DNA from: a virus
Virus record (IMG/VR): IMGVR_UViG_3300037247_000567
Location: 1 to 43,083 of that record
Strand: one strand, 5' to 3'
Length of the DNA: 43,083 bases
A program made the translations under genes and the position numbers. This document shows, piece by piece, positions 128 through 43,083 of this stretch (position 1 is its first letter; each line of letters starts with the position of its first letter). Below the pieces are notes generated by a model. That model worked only from the letters and a program-made list of their open reading frames with translations. It did no database searches and was not told the origin of the DNA.

Positions 128-3100
128 CAAGGGAATGAAGCCAGGGGCTAGGGTCACAGGACTCGCCCAGGACGGGGAACAGATTGAGGGTACGCTGATT
201 CAGGTAGCGGGTGAAAAGGCCATCATCCGTGACGCTTCGGGAACTGTGCGACCTGTGACCGCGCCTGAATTAGTAGCGGTGGCCACTGAAGGAGGAGTGG
301 GCGCTCGTTTAGGGGAGCGCCTGAAAGACATAGGCCGCGACTTTCGCTTTGGGCCTAGTTCGCGTACCGCTGTTCCTTCGCTTGACCCGTCCGTCCAGAA
401 GTTCGTCAAAGTCTTAAGGACGGCGAAACCCACGCAGAAGACCCTGAAGGCGGAGCGAGCGACTGAATTGGGTCGGAGAGCGGCGAAGGGTCGTGTCCCG
501 TTTGAGGCAGAGGCGAGGACGCCAGAGGAAGCGTTGGCGGGTCTCAGGGGTGCCCAGAAAGGCAAACTGCCAGCGCCGCCTGAGTTTGAGGTAACGCTTG
601 TTCCTGGTAAGTTCCCGAAGGTGGAACAAGCACAGCGGGCTCTCACGACAGGGCGTATAAAGGGTAAGCCTATTACACCAGCACAACGGGAGCTGTTTGA
701 GTCTATCGTTGAGGGCCGAGTCGAACCCATAGAGAGAGTAACAGGCGTCTTGAAGGACGCCTTCACCCAGGAAGAGGTGACTAACTTCATCAACATCGCC
801 CGTTTCTCCCCCGCACTAGACCGCGAAGTATTCACCAGGGCTAACGTCCTCGAAAGCCTGTTGGGTTCTCTGGAGAAGAAGGGCATCCTATTCGGGCGAC
901 TTCCGACTCCTGGGGAATTGAAGAATCTCGAACGTGTTTACGGTGCGGAGTTCGCCCGTGAGCTTCAGAAACTCCGGCCCTTCGGTGAACGGTTCTGGCG
1001 GCTGACGCTGGACGCCCTTAACATCCCGCGTTCCTTCTTGGCGGCGTTCGACCTCTCGTTCCCGTTCCGGCAGGGCGTGTTCGCGTTTGCGCGGCACCCT
1101 AAAGAGTTCTTCGGCAACCTTCCCGCTATGTTGCGAGCTGCTAAGAACCCTGAGTTTGCGGAGCAGATGGTGGCTGCGATTAAGGCTGACAAGACATTGA
1201 TACAGACCACTGAAGGGTTCCGCCCCCTCAACGAATTGATGGAGGAAGCCAGATTGTTCTTGCCCGACGTTTCGGGCACGGAAGCGTTTGAGGCACGGGC
1301 TGAGGAGTTCCTTTCGACACTGGCTCACCGCATTCCTGGGGTTGGGTTCTCTGAACGAGGATTCATCGCTTACGGCGACAAACTGCGTGCAGACATTTTC
1401 CGCAATACTCTTCAGTCTTGGGCGCGACAGGCCAAGCCCGCGACCGCTGACGAGATTGCTGACCTGGGGATTATGCTGAACGTCCTGACGGGCCGAGGGA
1501 ACCTTCCGCCCGAACTTGCCAAGAGCCTGTCGTTTGGCTTCTTCGCGCCCCGCTTCGCGGCATCGAGGCCGCAACTGTTCTTGGCTGCGACCATCAATAA
1601 CATCCCAGGGGCTAGGAGAGTGACGGGTACGCTCCTGGGCGCTCCTGGGCAGACAACCAGAGTAGCGCGACTCGCCACACAAGAACTTGTGACCTCAGTG
1701 AGTGCGGGGCTGGCGATACTGGGCCTGGTTAAACTGTCGGGTGCGGGAGACGTGGAACTTGACCCACGGTCTAGCGACTTCGGGAAAATAAAGATTGGCA
1801 AAACCCGCATCGACTTCTGGGGCGGTGCGCGGCCTTGGGCGACGATGATTGCCCGGATGATTACGGGCAAGAGCAAGTCGGTGACGGGCGAGTTCGACAT
1901 TACTCGCCTGAGTACGCTGGGAAGATTCGGACGGAGTAAACTGGCCCCGCCTGCGGCGCTGATTGTTGACGTAGTTGCTGGCGAGACGGCTATCGGAGAA
2001 GAGATCGGAACCACGGGAGATATACTCCGCCGAACTCTCCCCCTCGCCATACAGGACGTTGCGGACGCGGTGATACAGGAAGGGCTGACGCAGGGACTAT
2101 TGTCTCCGTTAGCGTTTCTGGGAGTGGGATTCCAGACCTACGAGACCATTGGCGAAAAGAAGAAGAAGGCGTTTGAGGAAGCCTTCCCCGACCGGACTTA
2201 CGAGGCCACCCCAGACGACAACCGCCTCGTGCGGGGGGCCATCGAAGAGGACAACAACAAAGACGCTCTAGAGGAAGCCTTCCAGCCCTCTCCTGAACAG
2301 ATGGAGACGGAGGAGGCTAGGGTGGCGCAGGCACAGGAATTGGGCCTGTTTACACTGGCGCAGGGAGTTGAGGAGTTACGGGGTCAGAGCCCAGAGGCAA
2401 TACTGACAGGCAATAACAATTCTGGCCCAGAGTTTGCCGACGTGTGGGTGGACTACCTGGACAGGATTTCGGGCGCGATATTTGAGGCCACGTTCGGCAA
2501 GGAAAAAAGAGGAAGCCCAGAGTATCTCGCTTGGCGGGACATCAAACTTCAGCGTGATCCCATCACCCGTGAGCCTTTGTGGGACGAGTTCTTCGCGGCG
2601 AAGGACGCCGCCCTTGCGAAGCTCGACCCCCGCCTACAGCGGGCATTGGATTTGGTGGACGCCCCAGGTGACGACCCCACACTACAGAAAGCGGTGGAGG
2701 ACTTCTACGCCGCCCGTGACAAGAGACGGGAACTGTTCGACATCCCTCGTTGGACGGATATTGGGGCTGCTGAACAGCAACAGATTGAGGAAGTCCACGA
2801 GCTTGTGGAGCGTAAGCGAACTGAACTTGCCTTCCAAGGCTTCGGGGATATTCCCGCTGGTGAAATATATAACATCGTTCAAGAGGAAAACGGCATCCCA
2901 GAACCTCTAATGGCCTTGGCGTTCGACCTTCGGCCAGGAACCAGCTTTGCTGACCAGTCTCGTAACCCTGAATACGACTCAACGTTGCTCGCCTCAACGG
3001 GGGCGCTGTTACCGTTCTTTCCCGATATGTTCAGACGACGCGAGATTCAGGCGGCACTAGGGTCGGGGGCGGAGAGTTTCGTGCCCATCAATTCACTGGC

Positions 3101-3182
3101 CGCAGACCCCACAAACACACTCGCGGCAGAGCCAACCATTTCAGAAAGTTTTGTTCCCTTAGAGGCATTAGCTGCGAGATAG
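3..3182 (+). CDS. 3' part (about 1,060 codons) of a junction-spanning virion-associated protein of about 1,302 codons. Same gene as 42230..43083.
   Basis: The frame is open from base 3, upstream of the track Met at 33. Residues LRGGEEGGGTLAGIGEAKDFF are encoded at both window ends. The gene lies between portal and scaffold genes. It has hydrophobic Ala/Gly/Leu-rich central segments and an acidic C-terminal third. TAG stop at 3180-3182. Confidence 0.85.
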   Translation, partial: LRGGEEGGGTLAGIGEAKDFFGRLVDPLLPQGGIPGGFKPRPKGMKPGARVTGLAQDGEQIEGTLIQVAGEKAIIRDASGTVRPVTAPELVAVATEGGVGARLGERLKDIGRDFRFGPSSRTAVPSLDPSVQKFVKVLRTAKPTQKTLKAERATELGRRAAKGRVPFEAEARTPEEALAGLRGAQKGKLPAPPEFEVTLVPGKFPKVEQAQRALTTGRIKGKPITPAQRELFESIVEGRVEPIERVTGVLKDAFTQEEVTNFINIARFSPALDREVFTRANVLESLLGSLEKKGILFGRLPTPGELKNLERVYGAEFARELQKLRPFGERFWRLTLDALNIPRSFLAAFDLSFPFRQGVFAFARHPKEFFGNLPAMLRAAKNPEFAEQMVAAIKADKTLIQTTEGFRPLNELMEEARLFLPDVSGTEAFEARAEEFLSTLAHRIPGVGFSERGFIAYGDKLRADIFRNTLQSWARQAKPATADEIADLGIMLNVLTGRGNLPPELAKSLSFGFFAPRFAASRPQLFLAATINNIPGARRVTGTLLGAPGQTTRVARLATQELVTSVSAGLAILGLVKLSGAGDVELDPRSSDFGKIKIGKTRIDFWGGARPWATMIARMITGKSKSVTGEFDITRLSTLGRFGRSKLAPPAALIVDVVAGETAIGEEIGTTGDILRRTLPLAIQDVADAVIQEGLTQGLLSPLAFLGVGFQTYETIGEKKKKAFEEAFPDRTYEATPDDNRLVRGAIEEDNNKDALEEAFQPSPEQMETEEARVAQAQELGLFTLAQGVEELRGQSPEAILTGNNNSGPEFADVWVDYLDRISGAIFEATFGKEKRGSPEYLAWRDIKLQRDPITREPLWDEFFAAKDAALAKLDPRLQRALDLVDAPGDDPTLQKAVEDFYAARDKRRELFDIPRWTDIGAAEQQQIEEVHELVERKRTELAFQGFGDIPAGEIYNIVQEENGIPEPLMALAFDLRPGTSFADQSRNPEYDSTLLASTGALLPFFPDMFRRREIQAALGSGAESFVPINSLAADPTNTLAAEPTISESFVPLEALAAR

Positions 3183-3194
3183 GAAGGATGAACA

Positions 3195-4634
3195 ATGGGA
3201 CATATCTCTGAAAGCGTAGCTGGATTTATAGGTGGCAATACACTCGGCAATCTGGGTGCCCCTGTCGGGCCAACGAGTGGCGGGCCGACTACCGGGCAGG
3301 TTCTGTCTAAGTTCTTCGATGCCCAAGGGAACCAACTCTTCGTTGACGAGATTGCGAATCAACAGTTCGTTCAGGACGCAAACGGTATATTCTATGTTCC
3401 CCGTTTTGACGGTCGCGGCCAATTCCAGGGTGTTGAATTGGCTTCCGCTTCACAGCAAGACATTATCAACGAAGCCCTCAACCCTACCGCCCCCGCAGGC
3501 CGCGCCCCTCCCTCCTTCGGCTCCACTCAGGCCGCACAGACACAGGCTGAGACGTTTGCACGGGAGCAGGCCGCGATACTCGCTCAGGCAAGGAAAGACG
3601 AACTGGCGGTTGCCGAGGCCCAGGCTGAACTAGACCGCCTCATCGGAGAGCGCGAAACGAAGCTCGGTATCGCCCGCGACATCATCGCCCAGAAAGAGGC
3701 GTCGGCACGAGAGGCCAGGGGCCAGGGACTTGAGTTCGCGGGTGAAGATATCTTCCGGTTCACCGCCGGAATACGTGGCGGGCGGGTAGCGTCGGGTGTC
3801 CATACTCCCGCCGATGTATTCCGTGGCGAACTTCAGCGGGCCGGGTCGTTCCAAGCCCCTGACTTGCAACAATTTGCCGGGGGGCAAACGGCGGGCGAGC
3901 TGGGTGTTGACATCGACGCTCTCGATAGCGTTCTTGCCAAGCTAGGCACAGACCAGGGCGTCCCGACATCGTTCGGGTTCGCCCACGGCGGCACCCTCTC
4001 TCCTGGGGGAGTTCTCGGCGGTGGCGGAGGCGATGGTTCTCAGGCCGTCCGTATTGGCGAAGAAGGGCCAGAAATCCTCATCCTTCGTCCTGACGGTAGT
4101 GTCGAGGTGGTGCCGATGGCTGGTAGCGCCGCTCACGGGGGAAGGTTCAGCGCGGAGTCGCTAGGCGGCTTCCAGTCACTCTTCCAGAACCTCCGTTCGT
4201 CTGTGGGGCTTCAGCCCGGCGCGTTGACGGCCAGCACTGGGAGGGGGATATTGTCAGATACGGCACGCAGCCGTCTAGGCATCGCCCCACGCGGCTTCGA
4301 GCCCCAAATCACGGGCCGAGCCCCGGCCTTCCAGGCCATCGGGCGTAGTCTTACCAATGTGAAGCCGGGTGCGTTTCAAGCACTACGCGCTGCACACCCT
4401 AACCTGTCGAGACAAGACGCTCGCGCTCAGGCGCTACAGTTACAGCGGACGATAGGGTTGCTCCCAGCGCCGCACAAGATACCGCCACTGTTCTTTGCTG
4501 GCTTGGTTCCAGCAGAACAGAAGGCGCTAGTTAGCGCCTACCGCTTCGCGGGGTTCCCAGAGAGTGACTTCAGGCACCTTTTGACGGTAACTCAACTTTC
4601 CGCTAATCCTGTGGCAGCGACCGCTGTAGGGTAA
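3195..4634 (+). CDS. Virion internal/ejection-like protein, function unknown (479 aa)
   Basis: Long ORF with a GGAAGGA RBS upstream. Coiled-coil-like segment QAETFAREQAAILAQARKDELAVAEAQAELDRL, then a Gly-rich tract and GEEGPEILILRP. Located between the giant gene and scaffold. Confidence 0.7.
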   Translation: MGHISESVAGFIGGNTLGNLGAPVGPTSGGPTTGQVLSKFFDAQGNQLFVDEIANQQFVQDANGIFYVPRFDGRGQFQGVELASASQQDIINEALNPTAPAGRAPPSFGSTQAAQTQAETFAREQAAILAQARKDELAVAEAQAELDRLIGERETKLGIARDIIAQKEASAREARGQGLEFAGEDIFRFTAGIRGGRVASGVHTPADVFRGELQRAGSFQAPDLQQFAGGQTAGELGVDIDALDSVLAKLGTDQGVPTSFGFAHGGTLSPGGVLGGGGGDGSQAVRIGEEGPEILILRPDGSVEVVPMAGSAAHGGRFSAESLGGFQSLFQNLRSSVGLQPGALTASTGRGILSDTARSRLGIAPRGFEPQITGRAPAFQAIGRSLTNVKPGAFQALRAAHPNLSRQDARAQALQLQRTIGLLPAPHKIPPLFFAGLVPAEQKALVSAYRFAGFPESDFRHLLTVTQLSANPVAATAVG

Positions 4635-4689: not shown

Positions 4690-5556
4690 ATGGAAGACGA
4701 CACGGCTGCAACGACAGCCCAAGAGCCTGGAGCGACGCAGGGATTTGAGGCCGCTGCTGAAGCGGCTGCGAAGACTGCGGAGCCCGCCCCGACGCAAGAA
4801 GGGACGGTGACGGGCGAGGGCGCGGAGGAGCTAAAGGTTCCCAGCACATTTGAGGAGTTTGAGAGTTCCGAGCGGCACCAGACTGCGCTCGCGGGAGCGC
4901 GGACGGCGGCGGTCGAAGAGGCCAAGCCCGACTTTCTCCGTGAAGCGAAGTCGGCTGCCTATAGGGAGTTCGACTCCTCTCACCAGCGGGTAGAGGCCCA
5001 TATAGCAACTCTAGCCCAGACTGGGCAGGCGATGAGCGGCGCTTGGTCGGATGCGCTTGATGATTTCGCCCAAAAGGGCGGTGACTCGAAAGAGCTTCAA
5101 CGTGTCTTGCGAGGCGTCATGCGTGAGAACCCTGGATGGGCCGAGGCGGTCAATAGCTCAATGTATGGGCAAGGCCAAGACGCGGCCCTACGGAAACTAG
5201 CTGACGAGTCAGGCGATCCCAGCCTTCTGTCGGACGTTTATCTCAGGCTGAGGAACGACCCAAGTATGGGAGATGCGGGGTTCGCCCGCGAAATCCTCGA
5301 CCGACTGACTGAGGCCCGAACCGGTGGCCGAATCAAAGAGGCCGTCGAAAAGGCCGTCAAGCCGAAGGACGAGGAGATCGCAAGGCTCACGGCCAGCCTG
5401 AACCAACTCAAGGGGCAGAGTCGCGAGGGGCCGGAAAGACTACCTGGGAGTGCCGGGGGCGGAAAACGGTATTCACAACTAACGCCAGATGAGCGTCGTG
5501 CTATGTCTAGTAAAGAGATCGACGCGATGCTGGCACGAGAAAGAGGAGAAAAATAG
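4690..5556 (+). CDS. Scaffolding-like protein (288 aa)
   Basis: ATG 4690 is preceded by GGAGGAG. The track start 4675 is a TTG inside the terminator U-tract. The protein is acidic, Ala/Glu-rich and helical-looking, and sits immediately upstream of the capsid gene. Confidence 0.6.
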   Translation: MEDDTAATTAQEPGATQGFEAAAEAAAKTAEPAPTQEGTVTGEGAEELKVPSTFEEFESSERHQTALAGARTAAVEEAKPDFLREAKSAAYREFDSSHQRVEAHIATLAQTGQAMSGAWSDALDDFAQKGGDSKELQRVLRGVMRENPGWAEAVNSSMYGQGQDAALRKLADESGDPSLLSDVYLRLRNDPSMGDAGFAREILDRLTEARTGGRIKEAVEKAVKPKDEEIARLTASLNQLKGQSREGPERLPGSAGGGKRYSQLTPDERRAMSSKEIDAMLARERGEK

Positions 5557-6447
5557 ATGGCAGTCAATACAGTAAATGTAGGAACAGCAGCTAACTGGAT
5601 ACCTGAAAACTGGCATCCAGAACTGTCGGACGCGGTTCAGGCCCATGTTGGGCTCGCCGACTTGGTTGACCGCTCGTTCGACAGCACGATGAAAAACGGC
5701 GACATTCTCCGTATCAGCGACAGGGCAAACCTTGCCGTTCGGGGAAAGTCAGCCGACACCACGGCTACGTGGTCGAACGTCACCGAGACACAACAGAACA
5801 TCACTATCAACCGGCAGGTGTACAACGCCTTCCTGGTTGAGAACATCGCGGAGCTTCAGTCACAACACGCCGTCAGGTCGGAGTACACCAACAACATCGC
5901 CTATTCCCTGATGTCGTTTGTTGAGGGAGACCTGACTTCGGGGCTGGCGTCTCTTCCCAATAGTTTCTCGCAGCTTGTCGGCGCGTTGGGTTCCGACCCG
6001 ACCACCGATAACATGATTCGCTCAGTCCAGTACCTAGACGACGCGGACGTGCCGGAAAGCGAAAGGTTCTTCTATATGAGCCCCGGCACTCACGCTGCGC
6101 TGTTGAAGCAGGACGTGTTCATCAACGCCGACTACGGCCCCGCTGGGGGTGTCACGACAGGTCGGATTACCAAGCCCGTCTTCGGGGCGACAGTTCACGT
6201 CTCCACGCTGGCGAGCAACAACCCCTCCACGTCGGGGCAGTCCTACTCGTGGTTCTGCCACAAGAGAGGCGTGGCGCTCATCATGCAACAGATGCCTGAC
6301 ATCCAGAGCCACTGGATTCCGCTGGAGTTTGGCTGGGGCACCACAGCAGACGTGATCTACCAGTTCGCTGAGAGGCTGATCCTGCCTAAGACGGCGGCAT
6401 CCACGTCCCCGAACGACAACTTCAACGTCACCGTGAGAGGGCCATAG
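5557..6447 (+). CDS. Major capsid protein (HK97-fold type inferred)
   Basis: 296 aa with an AGAGGAG RBS. It starts right after the scaffold TAG. Size, position and sequence character fit a major capsid protein. Not verified by search. Confidence 0.7.
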   Translation: MAVNTVNVGTAANWIPENWHPELSDAVQAHVGLADLVDRSFDSTMKNGDILRISDRANLAVRGKSADTTATWSNVTETQQNITINRQVYNAFLVENIAELQSQHAVRSEYTNNIAYSLMSFVEGDLTSGLASLPNSFSQLVGALGSDPTTDNMIRSVQYLDDADVPESERFFYMSPGTHAALLKQDVFINADYGPAGGVTTGRITKPVFGATVHVSTLASNNPSTSGQSYSWFCHKRGVALIMQQMPDIQSHWIPLEFGWGTTADVIYQFAERLILPKTAASTSPNDNFNVTVRGP

Positions 6448-6977
6448 TGCCTTCAGTTCAGGTCAAGCCTGGGAAGATTTATCACCCTCTGTCTTTGACC
6501 TGCAAGTTTCCGGTGGACACTGACCTTGTGTTGGACTGTCAGCGCCTGGGAGGGAAACCCTATCGGGGCACCCTCATCGGAAAGATGCCAGAGCTGCATC
6601 CATTCGTACAGCTCAAGAACCGCGTGATGTCGCAGACGAAGGAGTTTGTGCGGCACATGAAAAGCAAGGGTTATATACCCCAGCAGGCAGAGACCGAAAT
6701 GGAACTGTGGGGGCCGTTTCGGGAGAAGTTCGATATGGAGAAGGCATCCCAACTCGTCAATTTCGAGGAAGGTAATCCCTTCATCCCACAGGGACATTTC
6801 GGCTCTGCCGCGCATGGGGGCTGGCAGTCTGATGGGGTTATCGGCCCCAGAGTGCTGGACAAAGACCTTCTGCGAGACCACCAAGACTGGCGATGGGGAG
6901 TCATCTTCATCGTCAGGGGACACTTTTTAGCCACCAGAGGACACGAGAGCGAAGACACAGGAGGTTTGATCGTATGA
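6447..6977 (+). CDS. Head-module protein, function unknown (176 aa)
   Basis: GTG start overlaps the capsid TAG stop (taGTG). Long co-oriented ORF. Confidence 0.7.
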   Translation: MPSVQVKPGKIYHPLSLTCKFPVDTDLVLDCQRLGGKPYRGTLIGKMPELHPFVQLKNRVMSQTKEFVRHMKSKGYIPQQAETEMELWGPFREKFDMEKASQLVNFEEGNPFIPQGHFGSAAHGGWQSDGVIGPRVLDKDLLRDHQDWRWGVIFIVRGHFLATRGHESEDTGGLIV

Positions 6978-7705
6978 CGCAGGCACCGACAACAGGCTCG
7001 ATGGGAACGGGCAAGAGAGACGAGCGGGTGATCTACTATCGCAAACCGAGTAATGGAGGGCCTGAAGACGGCTGGATCGTCTGGGGCGACTCGGAATCCG
7101 GCACCAAGCTGCGGGATAGAGCTATCTTGGGCTTCCAGCCCCTCTTTGACTACGGGGCCATCACTGGCTACATGGACAGGGAGCAGAAAATCCCCGACCC
7201 AGGGAGCGTCTGGGGGCCTATCCTCCGACACCCAAGTGGCCCAGCGGAGTTTCCAATCTCGCAGATCGTAGCGCTACGCTGGCATATCGACCCGCCCATT
7301 CCCGTGAAGTTCCCGCAACTGAACGGGATGAAGATAACCCAGTATCAGTGTCCGGAGTGTTCCCGCGCTCCGTTTGCGGAGCTGAAAGAGGGCGACAAGG
7401 TAGTCCTCTCGGCCATCAAGTCGCTGGGGAATCACCTCACCATCATGCACAAGTGGGACAGGTTGGCCCTTCTGAAGTGGGGAGAGAGAGTTGGTATCGA
7501 CTTTGACGCCATCGACGCCCGTGTAGAGATTCCTTACGAGTACGAAGAGGAGCCGGAAGTCGAGGACGTAGTGGTGGAGACGAAGACGGCCAGCCTGAAT
7601 AGCGATTGTCCGAAGTGTGACTGGACTCCGAAGTCCTCCGCCAAGAGGCCTGACGTAGCGCTCAGGATGCACCTTCAGACTCACCCTGTGGAGGTTTCGG
7701 CATGA
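6974..7705 (+). CDS. Head-module protein with two C2H2-like zinc knuckles (243 aa)
   Basis: ATGA start/stop overlap with the upstream gene; the track start 6893 is judged too early. Motifs CPEC-x24-HLTIMH and CPKC-x17-HLQTH. Acidic linker EYEEEPEVEDVVVE. Confidence 0.7.
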   Translation: MTQAPTTGSMGTGKRDERVIYYRKPSNGGPEDGWIVWGDSESGTKLRDRAILGFQPLFDYGAITGYMDREQKIPDPGSVWGPILRHPSGPAEFPISQIVALRWHIDPPIPVKFPQLNGMKITQYQCPECSRAPFAELKEGDKVVLSAIKSLGNHLTIMHKWDRLALLKWGERVGIDFDAIDARVEIPYEYEEEPEVEDVVVETKTASLNSDCPKCDWTPKSSAKRPDVALRMHLQTHPVEVSA

Positions 7706-20073: not shown

Positions 20074-20101
20074 TTGCTTTCCCTTGTTCCTTCCTTATAA
20101 T
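20074..20101 (+). promoter_or_regulatory. Sigma70-type promoter for the + strand early operon
   Basis: TTGCTT (20074-79), 16-nt spacer, TATAAT (20096-20101), in the most AT-rich stretch of the window, 10 nt upstream of the ATG at 20112. Confidence 0.6.
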
Positions 20102-20111
20102 GATAGCCAAG

Positions 20112-20237
20112 ATGACAACAATGATTAGAGAACTCGCCTGCCTGCGGTGCGGCGCAACTTGGTATCCGCGTAAGCCAGGGAAGCCGAAGGCGTGCCCCAA
20201 CTGCAAGTCGCGGAAATGGGATGAGGTGAAGGTGTGA
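20112..20237 (+). CDS. Zinc-ribbon mini-protein (41 aa), first gene of the early operon
   Basis: MTTMIRELACLRCGATWYPRKPGKPKACPNCKSRKWDEVKV, with CxxC...CPxC. Paralog of the minus-strand gene 35601..35729. Confidence 0.6.
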   Translation: MTTMIRELACLRCGATWYPRKPGKPKACPNCKSRKWDEVKV

Positions 20238-20461: not shown

Positions 20462-20862
20462 TGGGTTGCGACATCCATCCCTATATCCAATACAAAGCCG
20501 AACACGAGTGGTTAGTTGGCTGGAGTGTTGAGATAGGCCGCAATTACGACCTCTTCGGTCTCATGGCCGGTGTCCGTGGCGGGGCTGAGCCAGTAGCTGA
20601 TGTCCGTGGCTTGCCCGGCAGAGTAGCTTGGCTTATCGACGATGAGGCGTTCCTTTATGAGGATGGCGAGAGGCGTCTCGACCCTGACGGACACACTCAC
20701 TCCTGGCTCACCATCGACGAATTACGTGAAGTCCACAAGCGCTATCACAGCTCGACGGACGCCCTATACCCAGAGTGGGAGCTTCAACTCATCTTAACTG
20801 CGATGGAAGGCATGGCGAAACAGGGCCGTGAACCCATCCTAGTATTCTGGTTCGACAATTGA
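20461..20862 (+). CDS. Hypothetical protein with N-terminal MGCDIH motif (133 aa)
   Basis: TAATG overlap start. MGCDIH...RNYDLFGLMAGVRG...RGLP resembles uncharacterised phage proteins I recall. No function known. Confidence 0.65.
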   Translation: MGCDIHPYIQYKAEHEWLVGWSVEIGRNYDLFGLMAGVRGGAEPVADVRGLPGRVAWLIDDEAFLYEDGERRLDPDGHTHSWLTIDELREVHKRYHSSTDALYPEWELQLILTAMEGMAKQGREPILVFWFDN

Positions 20863-20970
20863 TGACTCCTTTATCCAGCACGATTCCCAACGCGACCTCA
20901 GCCCTGCACCCCCAGGTTGGGGGTCGCGCCGGACGAAGGAGTATCAGAGAGAAAGGAGTTTGGGAGCGTG

Positions 20971-21090
20971 ATGGTGCAGGAGGGGGTACTCCCTTATCCT
21001 CTCCTGTCTCTTGTGCAGCTCACGAGCAACTTAAACGCAGCCATCTGCGGCTTTTGTCCGGTGGGTTCGTGGGCTGCATTGGAGGAATGA
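20971..21090 (+). CDS. Possible 39-aa protein immediately upstream of fic. The alternative model is the track ORF 20859..21095 in another frame.
   Basis: AAAGGAG RBS 12 nt upstream of the ATG (GTG at 20968 is also possible). It ends 1 nt before the fic ATG. The competing 78-aa frame is Gly/Arg/Ser-rich and lacks an RBS. Confidence 0.35.
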   Translation: MVQEGVLPYPLLSLVQLTSNLNAAICGFCPVGSWAALEE

Positions 21091-21091
21091 G

Positions 21092-21562
21092 ATGAAGGTA
21101 GACGAGTTTATCCGGCTAGAGGTACAGCATCAGGGCTTCGACTTGGCGACACAGCGGGGCCAGAACCGTGTCAAGTGGATGGCGGAGGCGTGGGAACACG
21201 CGACTTGGGTGAAACAAAAAGGCGGCCCAAAGACTAGCCAGCCTTGTGCTGGCTGTGCCGAAGAGCTTGGCAAACTTGTAGAGCACGAGAAGAACCGCAA
21301 CGGATTTCGCACCGCTGTCAATGTTCGGGTGGGGAATAGGTTTGCGCCCCACTACGGCGACGTTCGCTACCTTATGGAGCTTCTTGAACGGTGGGAGCCA
21401 GAGGACGAGGAAGAGTGCTTGGAGTGGTATCGCTGCTTTGAGATCATTCACCCATTCATCGACGGTAACGGGCGCGTCGGGAAGATTCTCTACAACTGGT
21501 GGCTGGACAAACTAGACGACCCTGAAATGCCGCCTGACCTATTTGGGGGAGGTGTGCCATGA
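21092..21562 (+). CDS. Fic-domain protein (minimal, 156 aa), predicted AMPylase-type enzyme
   Basis: Core motif HPFIDGNGRVGK matches HxFx(D/E)GNGRxxR, with terminal K in place of R. Upstream FRTAVNVRVGNRFAPHYGDV fits the Fic fold context. GGAGGA RBS. Confidence 0.8.
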   Translation: MKVDEFIRLEVQHQGFDLATQRGQNRVKWMAEAWEHATWVKQKGGPKTSQPCAGCAEELGKLVEHEKNRNGFRTAVNVRVGNRFAPHYGDVRYLMELLERWEPEDEEECLEWYRCFEIIHPFIDGNGRVGKILYNWWLDKLDDPEMPPDLFGGGVP

Positions 21563-21921
21563 CCCAATCCGCCACTGACATGTCCAACTGCACCCACGGC
21601 CCCAAGAAGGACTGCGCCGAGTGCCTTGTCGCTGAAATGGCGATGGCGCTGGACTTTGCGAGTGCGTACGCACACAACCGCGGCATACATGGCGCACCGT
21701 TCTCCCGGTGCGGCTTTGAGGTGTGCATGAAGGCCCGCGCCGTCTTGGAGAAGGCATTGTATGTCGGCCCGCCCGAAGTGCCGCTAGACCACGGCCATCC
21801 CCATGAGGCGTGTGAGGACTGTAGCGGCAAGGGCTCGTTCTGGAAGGCAAAGTCAGGCGGCAGCTTGAGCGGGAGCCGCGAGCTATGTTCTCGCTGTCAA
21901 GGAACAGGAGTCCAGGCATGA
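21559..21921 (+). CDS. Cys-rich protein with two DnaJ-type CxxCxGxG zinc knuckles (120 aa)
   Basis: ATGA overlap with the fic stop. Motifs CEDCSGKG and CSRCQGTG, plus an N-terminal C-x7-CAEC. Confidence 0.7.
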   Translation: MTQSATDMSNCTHGPKKDCAECLVAEMAMALDFASAYAHNRGIHGAPFSRCGFEVCMKARAVLEKALYVGPPEVPLDHGHPHEACEDCSGKGSFWKAKSGGSLSGSRELCSRCQGTGVQA

Positions 21922-22130
21922 GTGACCCTTGGGAGAAGGCTTACGTGTATGGGCGAATGCGTGGTGGAGGGCCGCGTGTCGCACATATTGTATCGGGTCA
22001 ACTCCCGTACCAGTTCCGCCCACATGCACTCTGCCTGATGCAGCCTCACCACCTGAGCCGCGTCCCTAAACCCTACGGTATCTGTAAACCGTGCCTGAAG
22101 ACAAAGCGAGCGAAGGAGCTAGGGCTGTGA
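21918..22130 (+). CDS. Hypothetical protein (70 aa)
   Basis: ATGA overlap start at 21918; the track start 21885 is judged too early. Confidence 0.55.
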   Translation: MSDPWEKAYVYGRMRGGGPRVAHIVSGQLPYQFRPHALCLMQPHHLSRVPKPYGICKPCLKTKRAKELGL

Positions 22131-22477
22131 CGGAGTACGCCGTCCTCTCTCCCGTTACCGATGGGGAGATAGTCCGCTATCGAGATAAGGCCATCTGGGT
22201 GCAATGCCCCGACTGTGGCCCCCGGCGCCCGCGTGTGAAGCCGCATTTTGACCACTTCATCGCCACCGTCGAGTCTCCGAAGGACGCCTACGAATGCAGT
22301 CTCTTGACGTGCTCCAACTGCGGCGAGAAAGCGCCCTACCGCAAGGCCAAGATTCCCACAAACGGCAAGGGGAAGTGCGGCTCAAAGTGCTGGAACGGCA
22401 AGACTATCTGTGCCTGTATCTGCGCTGGTAAATGTCATGGGGAAGGTAAATGTCGAGGTGGACATGAAGGAGGGTGA
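22127..22477 (+). CDS. Cys-rich zinc-binding-like protein (116 aa)
   Basis: GTGA overlap start. Motifs CPDC, CSNC and a C-terminal KCGSKCWNGKTICACICAGKCHGEGKC cluster. Confidence 0.55.
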   Translation: MTEYAVLSPVTDGEIVRYRDKAIWVQCPDCGPRRPRVKPHFDHFIATVESPKDAYECSLLTCSNCGEKAPYRKAKIPTNGKGKCGSKCWNGKTICACICAGKCHGEGKCRGGHEGG

Positions 22478-33405: not shown

Positions 33406-33642
33406 TCACTTCTTCGCCTCCTCAATGGCCTCGCGGGCCAATTCCGATGTGCGATGGCCCTGCGCGTAGCGTTCCAGCGCGGCCAGGAGCTTTGCGTGAT
33501 TGTTGACGGCACGGACAACGATAGCGGCATCGTCTAGAGAATAGACTGTGGCTAACTCTAGGGCCATCCCGTCCGGCCCGCTGATTTGTACCTCATCGTG
33601 TTGAATAGCCTTCGCTTCCCACGGTAGCGGTGTATGTTCCAT
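33406..33642 (-). CDS. Paralog family member 1 (78 aa, MEHTPLPW...)
   Basis: Start set at the ATG preceded by GGAAGGAAGGGA; the track start 33660 lies in the repeated cassette. Shares MEHTPLPW, IVVRAVNNHAKLLAALE and AREAIEEAKK with 34503..34802. Confidence 0.65.
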   Translation of the reverse strand: MEHTPLPWEAKAIQHDEVQISGPDGMALELATVYSLDDAAIVVRAVNNHAKLLAALERYAQGHRTSELAREAIEEAKK

Positions 33643-33669
33643 GTTGTCCCTTCCTTCCATGATGAAATG

Positions 33670-33921
33670 CTAGGACTTGGCTGCCTCAATGGCCTCGCGG
33701 GCACGGCGGGCATCACCTAATGTAACGGTGAGACGCAAAGTGGATGGCGTATCATCTGCTAGGGCAAGTGCGGCCAACGGTGTTAGTGCCAGTGTGAGTT
33801 GGGCGATGGTGGCGGCACGACTTTCAATGGTAGCTGCAAATCGGCTGATGATGTCTCCGTCTAAGAGGGCTATGTCCTTCCAGCGTTGATACTCTTTCGG
33901 CGTTAGTGCTGTATCTTCCAT
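33670..33921 (-). CDS. Paralog family member 2, divergent (83 aa, MEDTALTP...)
   Basis: Same 32-nt upstream cassette as member 1 (31/32 identical). C-terminus ARRAREAIEAAKS. Confidence 0.6.
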   Translation of the reverse strand: MEDTALTPKEYQRWKDIALLDGDIISRFAATIESRAATIAQLTLALTPLAALALADDTPSTLRLTVTLGDARRAREAIEAAKS

Positions 33922-33952
33922 GTTATCCCTTCCTTCCATGATGAAATGGGGG

Positions 33953-34141
33953 CTAGGCGGGTTTGTGGCAAGCATAAAATGCGGTGCTGGCAGAACCAGT
34001 ATTTTCCCAGCGCGATCCATCATTTAGGACTACAACCTCAACGTATTTCTCGCCTGGGCCGATTCTAACTGACTCTACCGCTTTCACGGTGACAATCTTA
34101 CCTGTATAGTCATTGCGGTATCGTTTACCTACGGTTGCCAT
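33953..34141 (-). CDS. Hypothetical beta-rich small protein (62 aa)
   Basis: Track ORF with a GGAGAGGAAG-type RBS upstream. Confidence 0.55.
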   Translation of the reverse strand: MATVGKRYRNDYTGKIVTVKAVESVRIGPGEKYVEVVVLNDGSRWENTGSASTAFYACHKPA

Positions 34142-34150
34142 CTTCCTCTC

Positions 34151-34345
34151 CTATAGACTCAGCATCACGATAACGACGGCTGCGACCACTATCAGGTATC
34201 CAAGGGCGTTGAGGACTTGGCCTGTCCTGTGGCGCATCTGAGCGCGTCTCTGCCTCTTCCGTAGCTCGCGTTGGAGAATGACCATCTGGCCCTCTGTGCG
34301 CCGTCTGCGGCCTATCTCGCGGAGCATGTCTGGTATCTCGTTCAT
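34151..34345 (-). CDS. Small protein with an Arg-rich centre and a C-terminal TM segment (64 aa)
   Basis: ATG 34345, 6 nt after AAGGAGG; the track start 34369 is judged too early. C-terminus LGYLIVVAAVVIVMLSL. Confidence 0.6.
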   Translation of the reverse strand: MNEIPDMLREIGRRRRTEGQMVILQRELRKRQRRAQMRHRTGQVLNALGYLIVVAAVVIVMLSL

Positions 34346-34397
34346 GGTATCCTCCTTGCTTGGGGGCACGCTGGCCCTATCGTTTAGCTAACTAGGC

Positions 34398-34499
34398 TCA
34401 TCCTTGCTTCCCAGACTGAGACAGGGCGATCTTGGGCGCGTACCCTTTCAAGGGGATACCGCTATGGCGCAGGCCGCAGACACATTTCCACGTCTTCAT
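34398..34499 (-). CDS. Mini-protein (33 aa, MKTWKCVCGLRHSGIPLKGYAPKIALSQSGKQG)
   Basis: The ATG lies 3 nt after the upstream TGA. Below the track cut-off. No clear RBS. Confidence 0.35.
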   Translation of the reverse strand: MKTWKCVCGLRHSGIPLKGYAPKIALSQSGKQG

Positions 34500-34502
34500 T
34501 GC

Positions 34503-34802
34503 TCAGTCTCCCTTCTTAGCGGCCAGGATGGCGGCGCGGGCCTCTTTGACTTCTGCCATTACGAACGGCGAGCGCTTGCGTTGGGGTGTCTCAAAGTAGC
34601 GGACAAACGCTTCCAGCGCCTCCAGCAGCGCCTCGTGGTTGTTAACGGCGCGGACAATGAAGTCGGCATCGGCGTCGGCGGGCACAATGGCCGTGGGGTG
34701 CGCTAGGAAATCGAGACCCATCCGTTCGCTGCTGCCATCAATGCGCCACCAATCTTGAGTTGTCTGTCCGTTTCGCATCCAGGGCAGGGGTGTGTGTTCC
34801 AT
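34503..34802 (-). CDS. Paralog family member 3 (99 aa, MEHTPLPW...)
   Basis: ATG 34802 after GAGAGGAGACG. Motifs FIVRAVNNHEALLEALE and ARAAILAAKKGD. Confidence 0.65.
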   Translation of the reverse strand: MEHTPLPWMRNGQTTQDWWRIDGSSERMGLDFLAHPTAIVPADADADFIVRAVNNHEALLEALEAFVRYFETPQRKRSPFVMAEVKEARAAILAAKKGD

Positions 34803-42243: not shown

Positions 42244-43083
42244 TTTCTTCCGATTCGAGCCGCCCTCGGTGCGTCAGGAGCGGATACAGGCCACCACTCT
42301 TCGCCTGACGGGCGAGATTTCACGGTTGGAGGAGGAGCAGGCCAACCTGCTTCGGTTGCGTGAGGTGGAGGCGCAGCAGAACCTTCAGTTCCCGCAGCCA
42401 GCGCCCACATCATTTGGGACGCCTACGGCGACTCCGACGCCAACCCCCCGTTCTCGTGTGGAACAGATTTTGGAGTCTGGGCGTTCCCCTCTAGGAGTAT
42501 TGGCCGAAGACGAAATCGCTCGCCAGCGTGAGAGGGGTGCTAATGTTGGTGGCCTCCTTCGCACCCTAGAAGACATTGATGCGCCGCGTCGATTTGTGAA
42601 ACGCGAGGTGATTGACCCTGTCGTGCCTGAGTTTGACTTGGGGGCGGTTCCTACGGAGACGATTGCAGCCCCGTTTCAGGAGGTAATGGCTGGCGTAGCT
42701 CGCTTGGGCGGTGTGAAGGAGGAACAGATACCTGATATCGCGGAAACGCTGGGCGAGGTCAGGATTACCTCTGAACTAGTGGAAGAGGCGACGAGTTTTG
42801 TCCTTGACCCTCTGAACATTGCGTTCTTCGCTGGCCCCATCCTTAAAGGGGCAGGCGGCGCTGCGAGAGTAGCGCAAAATATCCGCCGCACTGGCCGAGT
42901 GCCAGGGTTTGTGAAGACAGCGATGAGAACCGCGAGGTCTGAGGCTGGTGCCCCCCCATTACGTGGTGGGGAGGAAGGCGGAGGGACATTGGCGGGCATA
43001 GGGGAGGCCAAGGATTTCTTTGGGCGGCTCGTTGACCCCCTTCTGCCCCAAGGTGGTATCCCAGGCGGGTTTAAGCCTCGCCC
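42230..43083 (+). CDS. 5' part of the junction-spanning virion-associated protein of about 1,302 codons. It runs off the window end and continues at 128..3182.
   Basis: GTG 42230, 8 nt after AAGGA, overlaps the upstream gene by 14 nt. I read no stop in this frame to base 43083. The N-terminal coiled-coil segment is EISRLEEEQANLLRLREVEAQQ. Alternative in-frame ATG at 42686. The gene is absent from the ORF track because it lacks a stop within the window end. Confidence 0.75.
   Translation, partial: MVLFNFFRFEPPSVRQERIQATTLRLTGEISRLEEEQANLLRLREVEAQQNLQFPQPAPTSFGTPTATPTPTPRSRVEQILESGRSPLGVLAEDEIARQRERGANVGGLLRTLEDIDAPRRFVKREVIDPVVPEFDLGAVPTETIAAPFQEVMAGVARLGGVKEEQIPDIAETLGEVRITSELVEEATSFVLDPLNIAFFAGPILKGAGGAARVAQNIRRTGRVPGFVKTAMRTARSEAGAPPLRGGEEGGGTLAGIGEAKDFFGRLVDPLLPQGGIPGGFKPR
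42957..43083. repeat. Second copy of the 127-bp terminal overlap (identical to 1-127)
   Basis: Base-by-base comparison. Confidence 0.95.

Follow-up and report, generated by a model that had tools for sequence, protein, structure and literature searches.

A small phage Fic protein from a family that appears to have lost both halves of the Fic autoinhibitory latch

The virus record IMGVR_UViG_3300037247_000567 of IMG/VR, considered here over its whole length of 43,083 nucleotides (the window), contains on its plus strand a gene for a Fic protein of only 156 amino acids (21092..21562). A reading of this locus made from the sequence only took the protein for an unregulated or newly regulated AMPylase, possibly paired with the zinc-finger protein encoded directly downstream or with an open reading frame (ORF) of 39 amino acids directly upstream. 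The locus poses the question of what, if anything, holds so small an enzyme in check. The answer that I consider the probable one, with some reserve, is that nothing at the active site does: the protein would be a stand-alone, catalytically competent and unbraked Fic-fold transferase, one of a phage-restricted subfamily of mini-Fic proteins, and its target would be a protein of the host.

The gene begins with ATG, behind a GGAGG ribosome-binding site at 21081-21085, and its product consists of a single Fic-fold domain. The 156-amino-acid protein matches the Pfam family Fic/DOC (PF02661) at 32.3 bits, as against a gathering threshold of 24 (E=1.8e-7). A search of the PDB with the single sequence finds chains of FICD at about 1e-4, and a profile made from 49 relatives finds them at E=4e-16 over profile positions 20-132. 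The AlphaFold2 (AF2) model, built on the family alignment, has a predicted local distance difference test score (pLDDT) of 93.8 and a predicted template modeling score (pTM) of 0.90. It is composed of helices at residues 3-13, 21-43, 53-63, 88-99, 106-119 and 126-137, with the catalytic loop at 120-125 and a flap beta-hairpin predicted at about 79-84. Foldseek, run against the PDB, places FICD first (template modeling score 0.70-0.74, normalized to the query), followed by the Fic proteins of E. faecalis (EfFic), N. meningitidis (NmFic), H. pylori and S. oneidensis (SoFic). Viral collections say less: a viral structure library gave only weak matches to annotated Fic proteins, and the PHROGs families nearest to the protein carry the label of unknown function. 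Membership of the Fic superfamily is far beyond chance, and here the profile search and the structure prediction of the protein alone both bear out the sequence-only reading.

The Fic signature loop, HPFIDGNGRVGK, occupies residues 120-131 (21449..21484, plus strand) and runs H120-P-F-I-D-G-N-G-R128-V-G-K131. Set against the signature HxFx[D/E]GNGRxxR, it satisfies every position except the last, where the final Arg (called R2 here) is replaced by Lys131. The loop had been described as intact within 156 amino acids; the length and the position of the loop stand as described, and its full intactness does not.

The substitution is shared by the relatives of the protein. A word-indexed search gave 50 of these, of about 147-164 amino acids and all metagenomic, and an exhaustive profile search over 1.84 billion cluster representatives (clusters at 50% identity) brought the subfamily to 246 clusters at E<=1e-30; relaxed to E<=1e-10, it gave 2,215. 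Nearly all of the 150 top matches to the profile are full-length, and they lie in proteins of about 145-250 amino acids. In the longer members Pfam recognizes only Fic, plus one read-through into a fragment of DNA polymerase A. Domain fusions were considered as a clue to function and set aside, since Pfam adds nothing informative. Conservation was judged from an alignment of 187 members, with identity down to about 30% overall. Seven residues are invariant in all 187 (E10, Q14, H120, G125, N126, G127 and R128), three are conserved in at least 98% (P121, F122 and D124), and a further ten in at least 90% (G130, R73, N68, A33, W34, M30, Y113, F116, I119 and P144). Conservation extends to the flap (V78, V80 and G81) and to E64 and N68 (within VEPxKN), which are specific to the family and lie outside the catalytic loop. 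At the R2 position Arg occurs in none of the 187 members. Lys is found there in 138 (74%), Ala in 26, Ser in 11 and Gln in 7, and uncharged residues (Ala, Ser, Gln or Asn) together make up about 25%.

The distribution of the subfamily was assessed by running the family hidden Markov model over the ORFs of loci with a match, a member being defined as a protein that scores at least 100 bits with near full-length coverage of the profile. Among the matches listed, full-length members are held by 18 of 80 loci on IMG/VR viral contigs and by 0 of 78 loci on GTDB genome contigs, where the best other score is 70 bits and the proteins are larger, generic Fic proteins. In 50,697 GenBank phages, no full-length member came up with any of three family queries, and the contigs fetched by exact identity to members all look like phage. 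Going by these sequences, the subfamily appears to be confined to phages and is so far known only from uncultivated ones.

The inhibitory motif [S/T]xxxE[G/N] is absent from the window protein, from its N-terminal helix and its C-terminal tail alike. The helix itself is present (residues 3-13 of the AF2 model), bearing E10, with Q14 just past it. A regular-expression scan of the family proper found no N-terminal copy of the motif either, the few matches being scattered as chance would scatter them. The place that the motif would occupy can be located by comparison with a sister group of canonical mini-Fic proteins, made up of four weak matches of the first search and 20 proteins retrieved via one of them (P0050, P0203-P0222 and P0047-P0049 in all). 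The sister proteins have 157-190 amino acids and come from phage-like contigs and gene blocks (for example loci L173 and L174). They begin ..E-[H/Y/F]-[L/I]-[R/H]-[E/Q]-S-N-L-I-E-[G/N]-I-D-D.. and carry the loop HPFxDGNGRxGR. When the two groups are aligned by hhalign (probability 99.8), the E10, R/H13 and Q14 of the family fall on the E, R/H and E/Q that directly precede the inhibitory motif of the sisters, and the sister S-N-L-I-E-G falls on window residues 15-20, the slot G15-F-D-L-A19-T20 (21134..21151, plus strand), with Ala19 at the position of the inhibitory Glu. The slot so assigned matches a stretch of six residues that 76 of the 187 members (about 40%) lack. In members that keep the slot, position 19 varies (Gly in 20, Ala in 15, Asp in 15, Ser in 12, Asn in 12, Glu in 10, and others).

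The Glu found at the aligned inhibitory position in 10 of the 111 slot-keeping members (P0009, P0018, P0027, P0036, P0080, P0088, P0108, P0132, P0167 and P0172), as in GFDLET, stands there without the flanking S/T and G/N, and may have survived from the motif of the ancestor.

The inhibitory Glu is known to form a salt bridge with R2, the last Arg of the Fic motif (PMC5033356). Since the slot of the motif is substituted or deleted and R2 is never Arg, the subfamily appears to have lost both halves of this latch, the inhibitory Glu motif and its R2 partner. Uncharged R2 residues are found almost exclusively in the subgroup with the slot deletion (42 of 49), and this co-occurrence may come in part from shared ancestry. 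The invariant E10 and Q14, which lie on one face of the helix, were considered as a relocated inhibitory or catalytic Glu, an idea that is disfavored rather than rejected outright. They are best read as a feature of structure, because the sister group has E-x-x-R-[E/Q] in front of its own SNLIEG, and are probably common to both groups for that reason rather than a substitute for a catalytic Glu.

A third difference lies at the C-terminus. The chain stops 25 residues past the loop, in a conserved tail, L141-D-D-P144-E-M-P147-P148-D-L-F-G-G-G-V-P156 (21512..21559, plus strand), which stands where, in canonical Fic domains, the active-site helix is followed by a further helix. Canonical relatives keep a helix there. 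The Pro-rich tail, LDDPEMPPDLFGGGVP, is non-helical but ordered in the AF2 model over residues 138-153 (pLDDT 94 at 141-150), and its consensus in the family is L141-x-x-P144-x-x-P147-P148-D-[F/L]-[F/W]-G, with L141, P144, P147, P148, D149 and F151 conserved.

On the reading favored here, the subfamily would descend from small class-II-type phage Fic proteins that had an N-terminal inhibitory helix and a full loop. The lineage would then have lost the S-N-L-I-E-G turn, the Arg of the salt bridge, and the helix after the active-site helix, in whose place the Pro-rich tail now stands. Still in place are the catalytic His, the Phe that serves as anchor, the Asp that binds Mg, the anion hole GNG, the first Arg and the flap on which targets dock. 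The enzyme, produced during infection with its active site unobstructed, would receive a segment of its target, a host protein, on the flap and attach to one of its hydroxyl side chains a group derived from a nucleotide. The group to be expected by default would be adenosine monophosphate (AMP), taken from adenosine triphosphate (ATP). Control would be exerted through the timing of expression and not by a partner protein.

Several observations weigh against this account. The per-residue confidence of the hhalign alignment is low over the N-terminal 20 residues or so, and another register is possible in which E10-x-x-x-Q14-G15 corresponds to [S/T]xxxE[G/N] and Gln14 would be a neutralized brake residue; in the window protein the inhibitory position lacks an acidic residue whichever register is chosen. 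The absence from cellular genomes holds among the matches listed and is not absolute. A further point concerns the cosubstrate. R2 makes a hydrogen bond to the ribose and helps to bind ATP's gamma-phosphate (PMC4342408), and it is important for competent ATP binding in characterized AMPylators. Lys might substitute for it; Ala, Ser and Gln cannot, and ATP-dependent AMPylation may for that reason not be the reaction. Moreover, the adenine pocket of FICD is formed partly by L403 and N407, on the helix after the active-site helix (PMC4342408), and that helix has no counterpart in the window protein. The description of the protein as an unregulated AMPylase can be kept in its first half, the brake motif being absent; the second half is no more than putative: with R2 changed to Lys and the C-terminal helix gone, another cosubstrate may be in use.

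These same changes could mean that the subfamily has switched cosubstrate, so that the host is modified with something other than AMP: another nucleoside monophosphate, a phosphoryl group as with Doc, or a phospho-headgroup as with AnkX. It is in keeping with this that R2 is never Arg and is often uncharged, that the contacts of R2 and of the L403/N407 helix in FICD are just those missing here, that E64 and N68 are specific to the family, and that the conserved tail contains aromatic residues. A published in-silico survey also proposes that altered function accompanies small changes in the Fic motif (PMC4454073; PMC5033356). Nevertheless, AMPylators have exactly this GNGR core, this Mg-binding Asp and this flap, the Doc signature (..A/G-N-K-R and no flap) is absent, the Lys131 of the majority could still touch the gamma-phosphate, and the canonical sisters, equally short, suggest that ordinary Fic chemistry can do with a small C-terminus. 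I regard a switch of this kind as unlikely, though deserving of attention. The fuller proposition, that the protein uses a different donor to make a previously undescribed modification of a host protein, whether for takeover or for disarming defenses, and is no ordinary AMPylase, seems to me doubtful to about the same degree.

A different consequence of the same losses would be that no catalysis is left and that the protein is a Fic-fold binding protein. The missing R2 and the shortened C-terminus are consistent with such a pseudoenzyme, and an in-silico survey suggested inactivity for some Fic groups that lack the last Arg (PMC4454073). However, His, GNG and the first Arg are invariant, and the Asp nearly so, across sequences as divergent as those aligned here, a pattern of conservation that indicates selection on catalysis and makes a dead enzyme very improbable. 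Scarcely better placed is the notion that the mini-Fic protein acts in counter-defense, removing the AMP set by host abortive-infection systems of the Fic type, such as SoFic, or otherwise antagonizing them. Its best match in PADLOC is indeed the SoFic defense model (43.6 bits, E=6e-12), the literature credits Fic enzymes with the ability to act as deAMPylases, and a deAMPylase would presumably need no R2 to hold the beta- and gamma-phosphates. The match, however, spans only positions 91-209 of the 361 in the model and reflects ordinary homology of the Fic core. Fic deAMPylation, as carried out by FICD and EfFic, uses the Glu of the inhibitory helix, the very residue that the subfamily lacks, and the invariant E10 is no replacement, being shared with sisters that have the Glu of their own SNLIEG. 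This explanation is accordingly given little credence.

There remains the suggestion that the brake is supplied from outside, by one of the genes that flank the Fic gene. The downstream gene (21559..21921, plus strand) encodes the zinc-finger protein, of 120 amino acids. Its ATG (21559-21561) overlaps the Fic stop codon (21560-21562) in ATGA (21559-21562), and in the window this overlap is the CCATGA that closes the conserved ..V-P-stop C-terminus of the Fic protein. The protein has an N-terminal domain of about 84 amino acids (21559-21810) with invariant C11, H13, C19 and C22 (C-T-H-G-P-K-x-D-C-x-x-C), the stretch ARAVLEKA and a His-rich end, LDHGHPHE. To this is added a C-terminal segment of CxxCxGxG type, with the knuckles CEDCSGKG (residues 85-92) and CSRCQGTG (residues 110-117), which are enough for one zinc center resembling that of the DnaJ cysteine-rich domain. 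The match to the Pfam family DnaJ_CXXCXGXG reaches 20.8 bits, under the threshold of 32.7, with two repeats as against four, and that to the DnaJ model TIGR02349 reaches 16 bits against a cut-off of 377. The AF2 model of the protein is poor (pLDDT 58). Only seven homologues (P0196-P0202) were found in 5.8 billion sequences, so that with the window the protein is known from eight metagenomic sequences. All seven align with roughly the first 84 residues and lack the knuckles: five end in ..LDHGHPHE (or LDHGHE/LDHGHRHE) and two earlier. At the locus of P0199, the only homologue on a long contig, there is no Fic gene.

The ORF upstream (20971..21090, plus strand) begins MVQEG and encodes 39 amino acids, or alternatively 40 if it starts at the GTG at 20968. 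AAAGGAG is a plausible ribosome-binding site for it, and the gene calls of an identical contig include it. No homologue of it lies upstream of other family genes in the 23 loci described below, and it has no inhibitory motif. [S/T]xxxE[G/N] is likewise absent from the upstream frames of 57 and 78 amino acids and from the downstream protein, and no EG or EN dipeptide occurs in the Fic protein, in the 120-amino-acid protein or in the 78-amino-acid frame (20859-21095). Within the 39-amino-acid ORF, upstream of the Fic gene, is a weak terminator-like hairpin (CGCAGCCATCTGCG then GCTTTTGTCC, 21036-21059, plus strand).

Neighborhoods were compared in a set made from eight contigs with family members, retrieved through exact identity, and sixteen full-length loci of IMG/VR, taking the ORFs within 3.5 kb (23 loci). 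When all of these ORFs were compared with one another by BLAST, nothing proved common to the loci except the Fic gene and its antisense shadows. Even beside a homologue 79% identical to the window protein (locus L008), the downstream gene encodes an unrelated coiled-coil protein of 94 amino acids, and the upstream genes are unrelated as well. The motif [ST]xxxE[GN] occurs 9 times in 11,523 amino acids of flanking ORFs, where about 9 are expected on a rough estimate; because this is the frequency of chance, no inhibitory motif appears to be supplied in trans. ORFs with CxxCxGxG are not enriched beside family genes (0.21 per 10 kb, as against 0.12 at other viral Fic loci). Small ORFs with two or more CxxC do occur at a distance of no more than 400 bp from the Fic gene at 9 of the 23 loci (L004, L005, L091, L097, L098, L102, L141, L172 and the window), where 4.3 +/- 1.7 are expected (P about 0.01). 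The signal is weak, the test was made post hoc, and its null of random placement includes regions poor in small genes. The proteins concerned are mutually non-homologous, and the excess is attributed to the composition of phage small-gene blocks, which are rich in zinc ribbons, and not to partnership.

Three of the loci have features of their own. In L093 (IMG/VR UViG_3300031949_000051, 4845-5441) the frame upstream of the Fic start is open through CRECG...CPKCDGFG, which represents either a natural fusion of a zinc finger to Fic or a misplaced start. In L007 a gene for an RtcB RNA ligase (2460-3683) lies two genes upstream of the mini-Fic gene, and in L006 a gene of TROVE/Ro60-like type with a von Willebrand factor A (VWA) domain (5930-7351) lies downstream of it; a link with RNA repair is conceivable. 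As candidates for recurrent functional neighbors, RtcB (L007), TROVE/Ro60 with VWA (L006), DNA polymerase A (L004) and a methyltransferase (L008) appear once each and form no pattern.

It is hard to sustain, in the light of this comparison, that the zinc-finger protein or the 39-residue peptide inhibits, chaperones or targets the Fic protein and is translationally coupled to it through ATGA. The four-base overlap, the excess of multi-CxxC neighbors and the zinc-finger segment in frame at L093 speak for such a system. Against it, the flanking genes differ at all the other loci, the zinc-finger protein has its knuckles in none of its homologues and, in the one instance with context, resides away from Fic genes, and at five loci (L001, L003, L005, L007 and L008) unrelated downstream genes have a start that overlaps the Fic stop by the same four bases. 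ATGA overlaps in phage genomes are in any case no proof of a functional link, and the junctions of the window block near the Fic gene are mostly tight (overlaps of 4, 4, 1 and 4 nucleotides and one gap of zero). The zinc-finger protein was rejected as a conserved partner on the 23-locus comparison, on its own homologues and on the lack of CxxCxGxG enrichment, and the 120-residue gene is placed outside any Fic system by its homologues, its neighborhoods and Pfam. The evidence says that it and the 39-residue ORF are probably unrelated neighbors in a dense block of small genes, and I consider a partnered system most improbable. What the sequence-only reading had seen in the letters is there: the ATGA overlap, the two knuckles, the EG at the start of the 39-residue ORF, the lack of EG and EN elsewhere, and the lack of an inhibitory motif in cis, to which its lack in trans at the neighbors can now be added. 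The likeness to DnaJ holds at the level of the motif and fails at the level of the domain, and the functional pairing is not upheld, neither gene being conserved beside other members of the family.

The window itself is a complete phage genome, given the exact recurrence of bases 1-127 at 42957-43083. This direct repeat of 127 nucleotides reflects either a circular assembly or direct terminal repeats, and the genome length is 42,956 bp. Its products include a major capsid protein, virion proteins, a large terminase, an SLT transglycosylase, RusA and an amidase, and lysis genes are present. The DNA has no match among the 50,697 GenBank phage records, and the large terminase is only about 22% identical to that of the nearest phage in them. 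The Fic gene lies in a block of small, densely packed plus-strand genes (about 19.4-26.5 kb), between the structural module and the lysis/recombination module. The same block includes an ORF of 128 amino acids (22091-22477, plus strand) with an extremely Cys-rich C-terminus (..CGSKCWNGKTICACICAGKCHGEGKCRGGHEGG) and further CxxC pairs earlier in the chain, which received no assignment in Pfam, PHROG or PADLOC, and further small ORFs resembling zinc ribbons, such as 20100-20237. Farther along, 33412-34541 holds two families of imperfect direct repeats, one of 55 nucleotides at 33615 and 33894 (85% identical) and one of 27 nucleotides at 33412, 33676 and 34515. Both GC and AT skew are reversed at 34-36 kb. 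The repeat region could be a set of paralogous minus-strand genes or a regulatory or origin region.

Both the Fic fold and the notion that a Fic enzyme can go unregulated are established. New here are the coordinated loss of both latch residues, the shortened architecture, and the family's size and phage-only range; a full-text literature search found no paper on this subfamily or on any characterized phage mini-Fic protein. If a whole phage lineage has dropped both halves of the latch and cut the domain to about 150 residues, it constitutes a natural experiment on a minimal, unregulated Fic enzyme. The 246 clusters found at the stricter threshold would then represent an uncharacterized set of phage effectors, which, judging by sequence, probably modify host proteins during infection. 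Were a different donor used, these more than 240 clusters would amount to an untapped class of effector enzymes. Bacteria deploy Fic proteins such as SoFic against phage, and the chemistry on the phage side is of interest for that reason. The small size of the protein, its lack of a partner and the ready control offered by its catalytic His make it an easy experimental target.

It remains to place the protein, taken as a stand-alone and unbraked transferase, among the known Fic systems. It is closest in fold to class II (FICD/HYPE, SoFic), whose elements it has in the same succession, from the N-terminal helix and the long helix through the flap and a pair of helices to the loop and the active-site helix. 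FICD is the best match in both sequence and structure, and no difference exists at the His, Phe, Asp, GNG and first Arg. However, the slot reads GFDLAT rather than [S/T]xxxE[G/N], the last Arg is Lys, and the protein has 156 amino acids as compared to more than 340, without tetratricopeptide repeats or accessory domains and with the Pro-rich tail in place of the following helices. In terms of the classes of regulated Fic proteins, it has the N-terminal helix (3-13) of class II without the inhibitory motif; it has neither the adjacent small gene with an inhibitory motif that marks class I (VbhTA/FicTA) nor any conserved neighbor in the 23 loci; and its C-terminus, LDDPEMPPDLFGGGVP, is non-helical, Pro-rich and free of the motif, unlike that of class III (NmFic). 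With Lys131 at R2 it departs from the strict AMPylator signature HxFx[D/E]GNGRxxR. Nor is it a SoFic defense protein, in view of the partial coverage of the PADLOC model, a score of 23 bits against the NCBIfam SoFic cut-off of 550, and the location of the gene in a phage genome. Its neighbor of 120 amino acids shares with the cysteine-rich domain of DnaJ (PF00684) the two CxxCxGxG that form the unit of one DnaJ zinc center, but has two repeats instead of four, has no J domain, and differs from its own homologues in having the knuckles at all.

Doc, the Fic-fold kinase of the Phd/Doc system of phage P1, receives its inhibitor in trans. It resembles the window protein in being small, phage-borne and without the last Arg in its motif. 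The motif of Doc, though, reads ..[A/G]-N-K-R and its beta-hairpin flap is missing (PMC4454073), whereas the window protein retains G-N-G-R and a predicted flap and has no partner like Phd. The same survey describes another small Fic group without the last Arg (of GNTR type), the function of which it leaves open (PMC4454073).

A precedent for an unbraked enzyme is available from bacterial effectors, and a closer comparison from phage. VopS and IbpA, large multi-domain effectors of eukaryotic GTPases, retain Arg at R2; in the window protein, a phage protein made up of nothing but a domain of 156 amino acids, that position is Lys. Neither inhibitory helix nor motif occurs in VopS and IbpA Fic2, which are AMPylators with constitutive activity (PMC4342408). 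The closest relatives, however, are the canonical phage mini-Fic proteins of the sister group, which have the same size, the same E-x-x-R-[E/Q] start, the AW motif, the VNVRVG flap and HPFxDGNGR. Three things that the window family appears to have lost are present in the sisters: SNLIE[G/N], Arg at R2, and a helix at the C-terminus (..P-I-L-x-x-x-x-E-R-x-x-Y-Y..). These sister proteins are apparently uncharacterized too, and offer a useful natural control.

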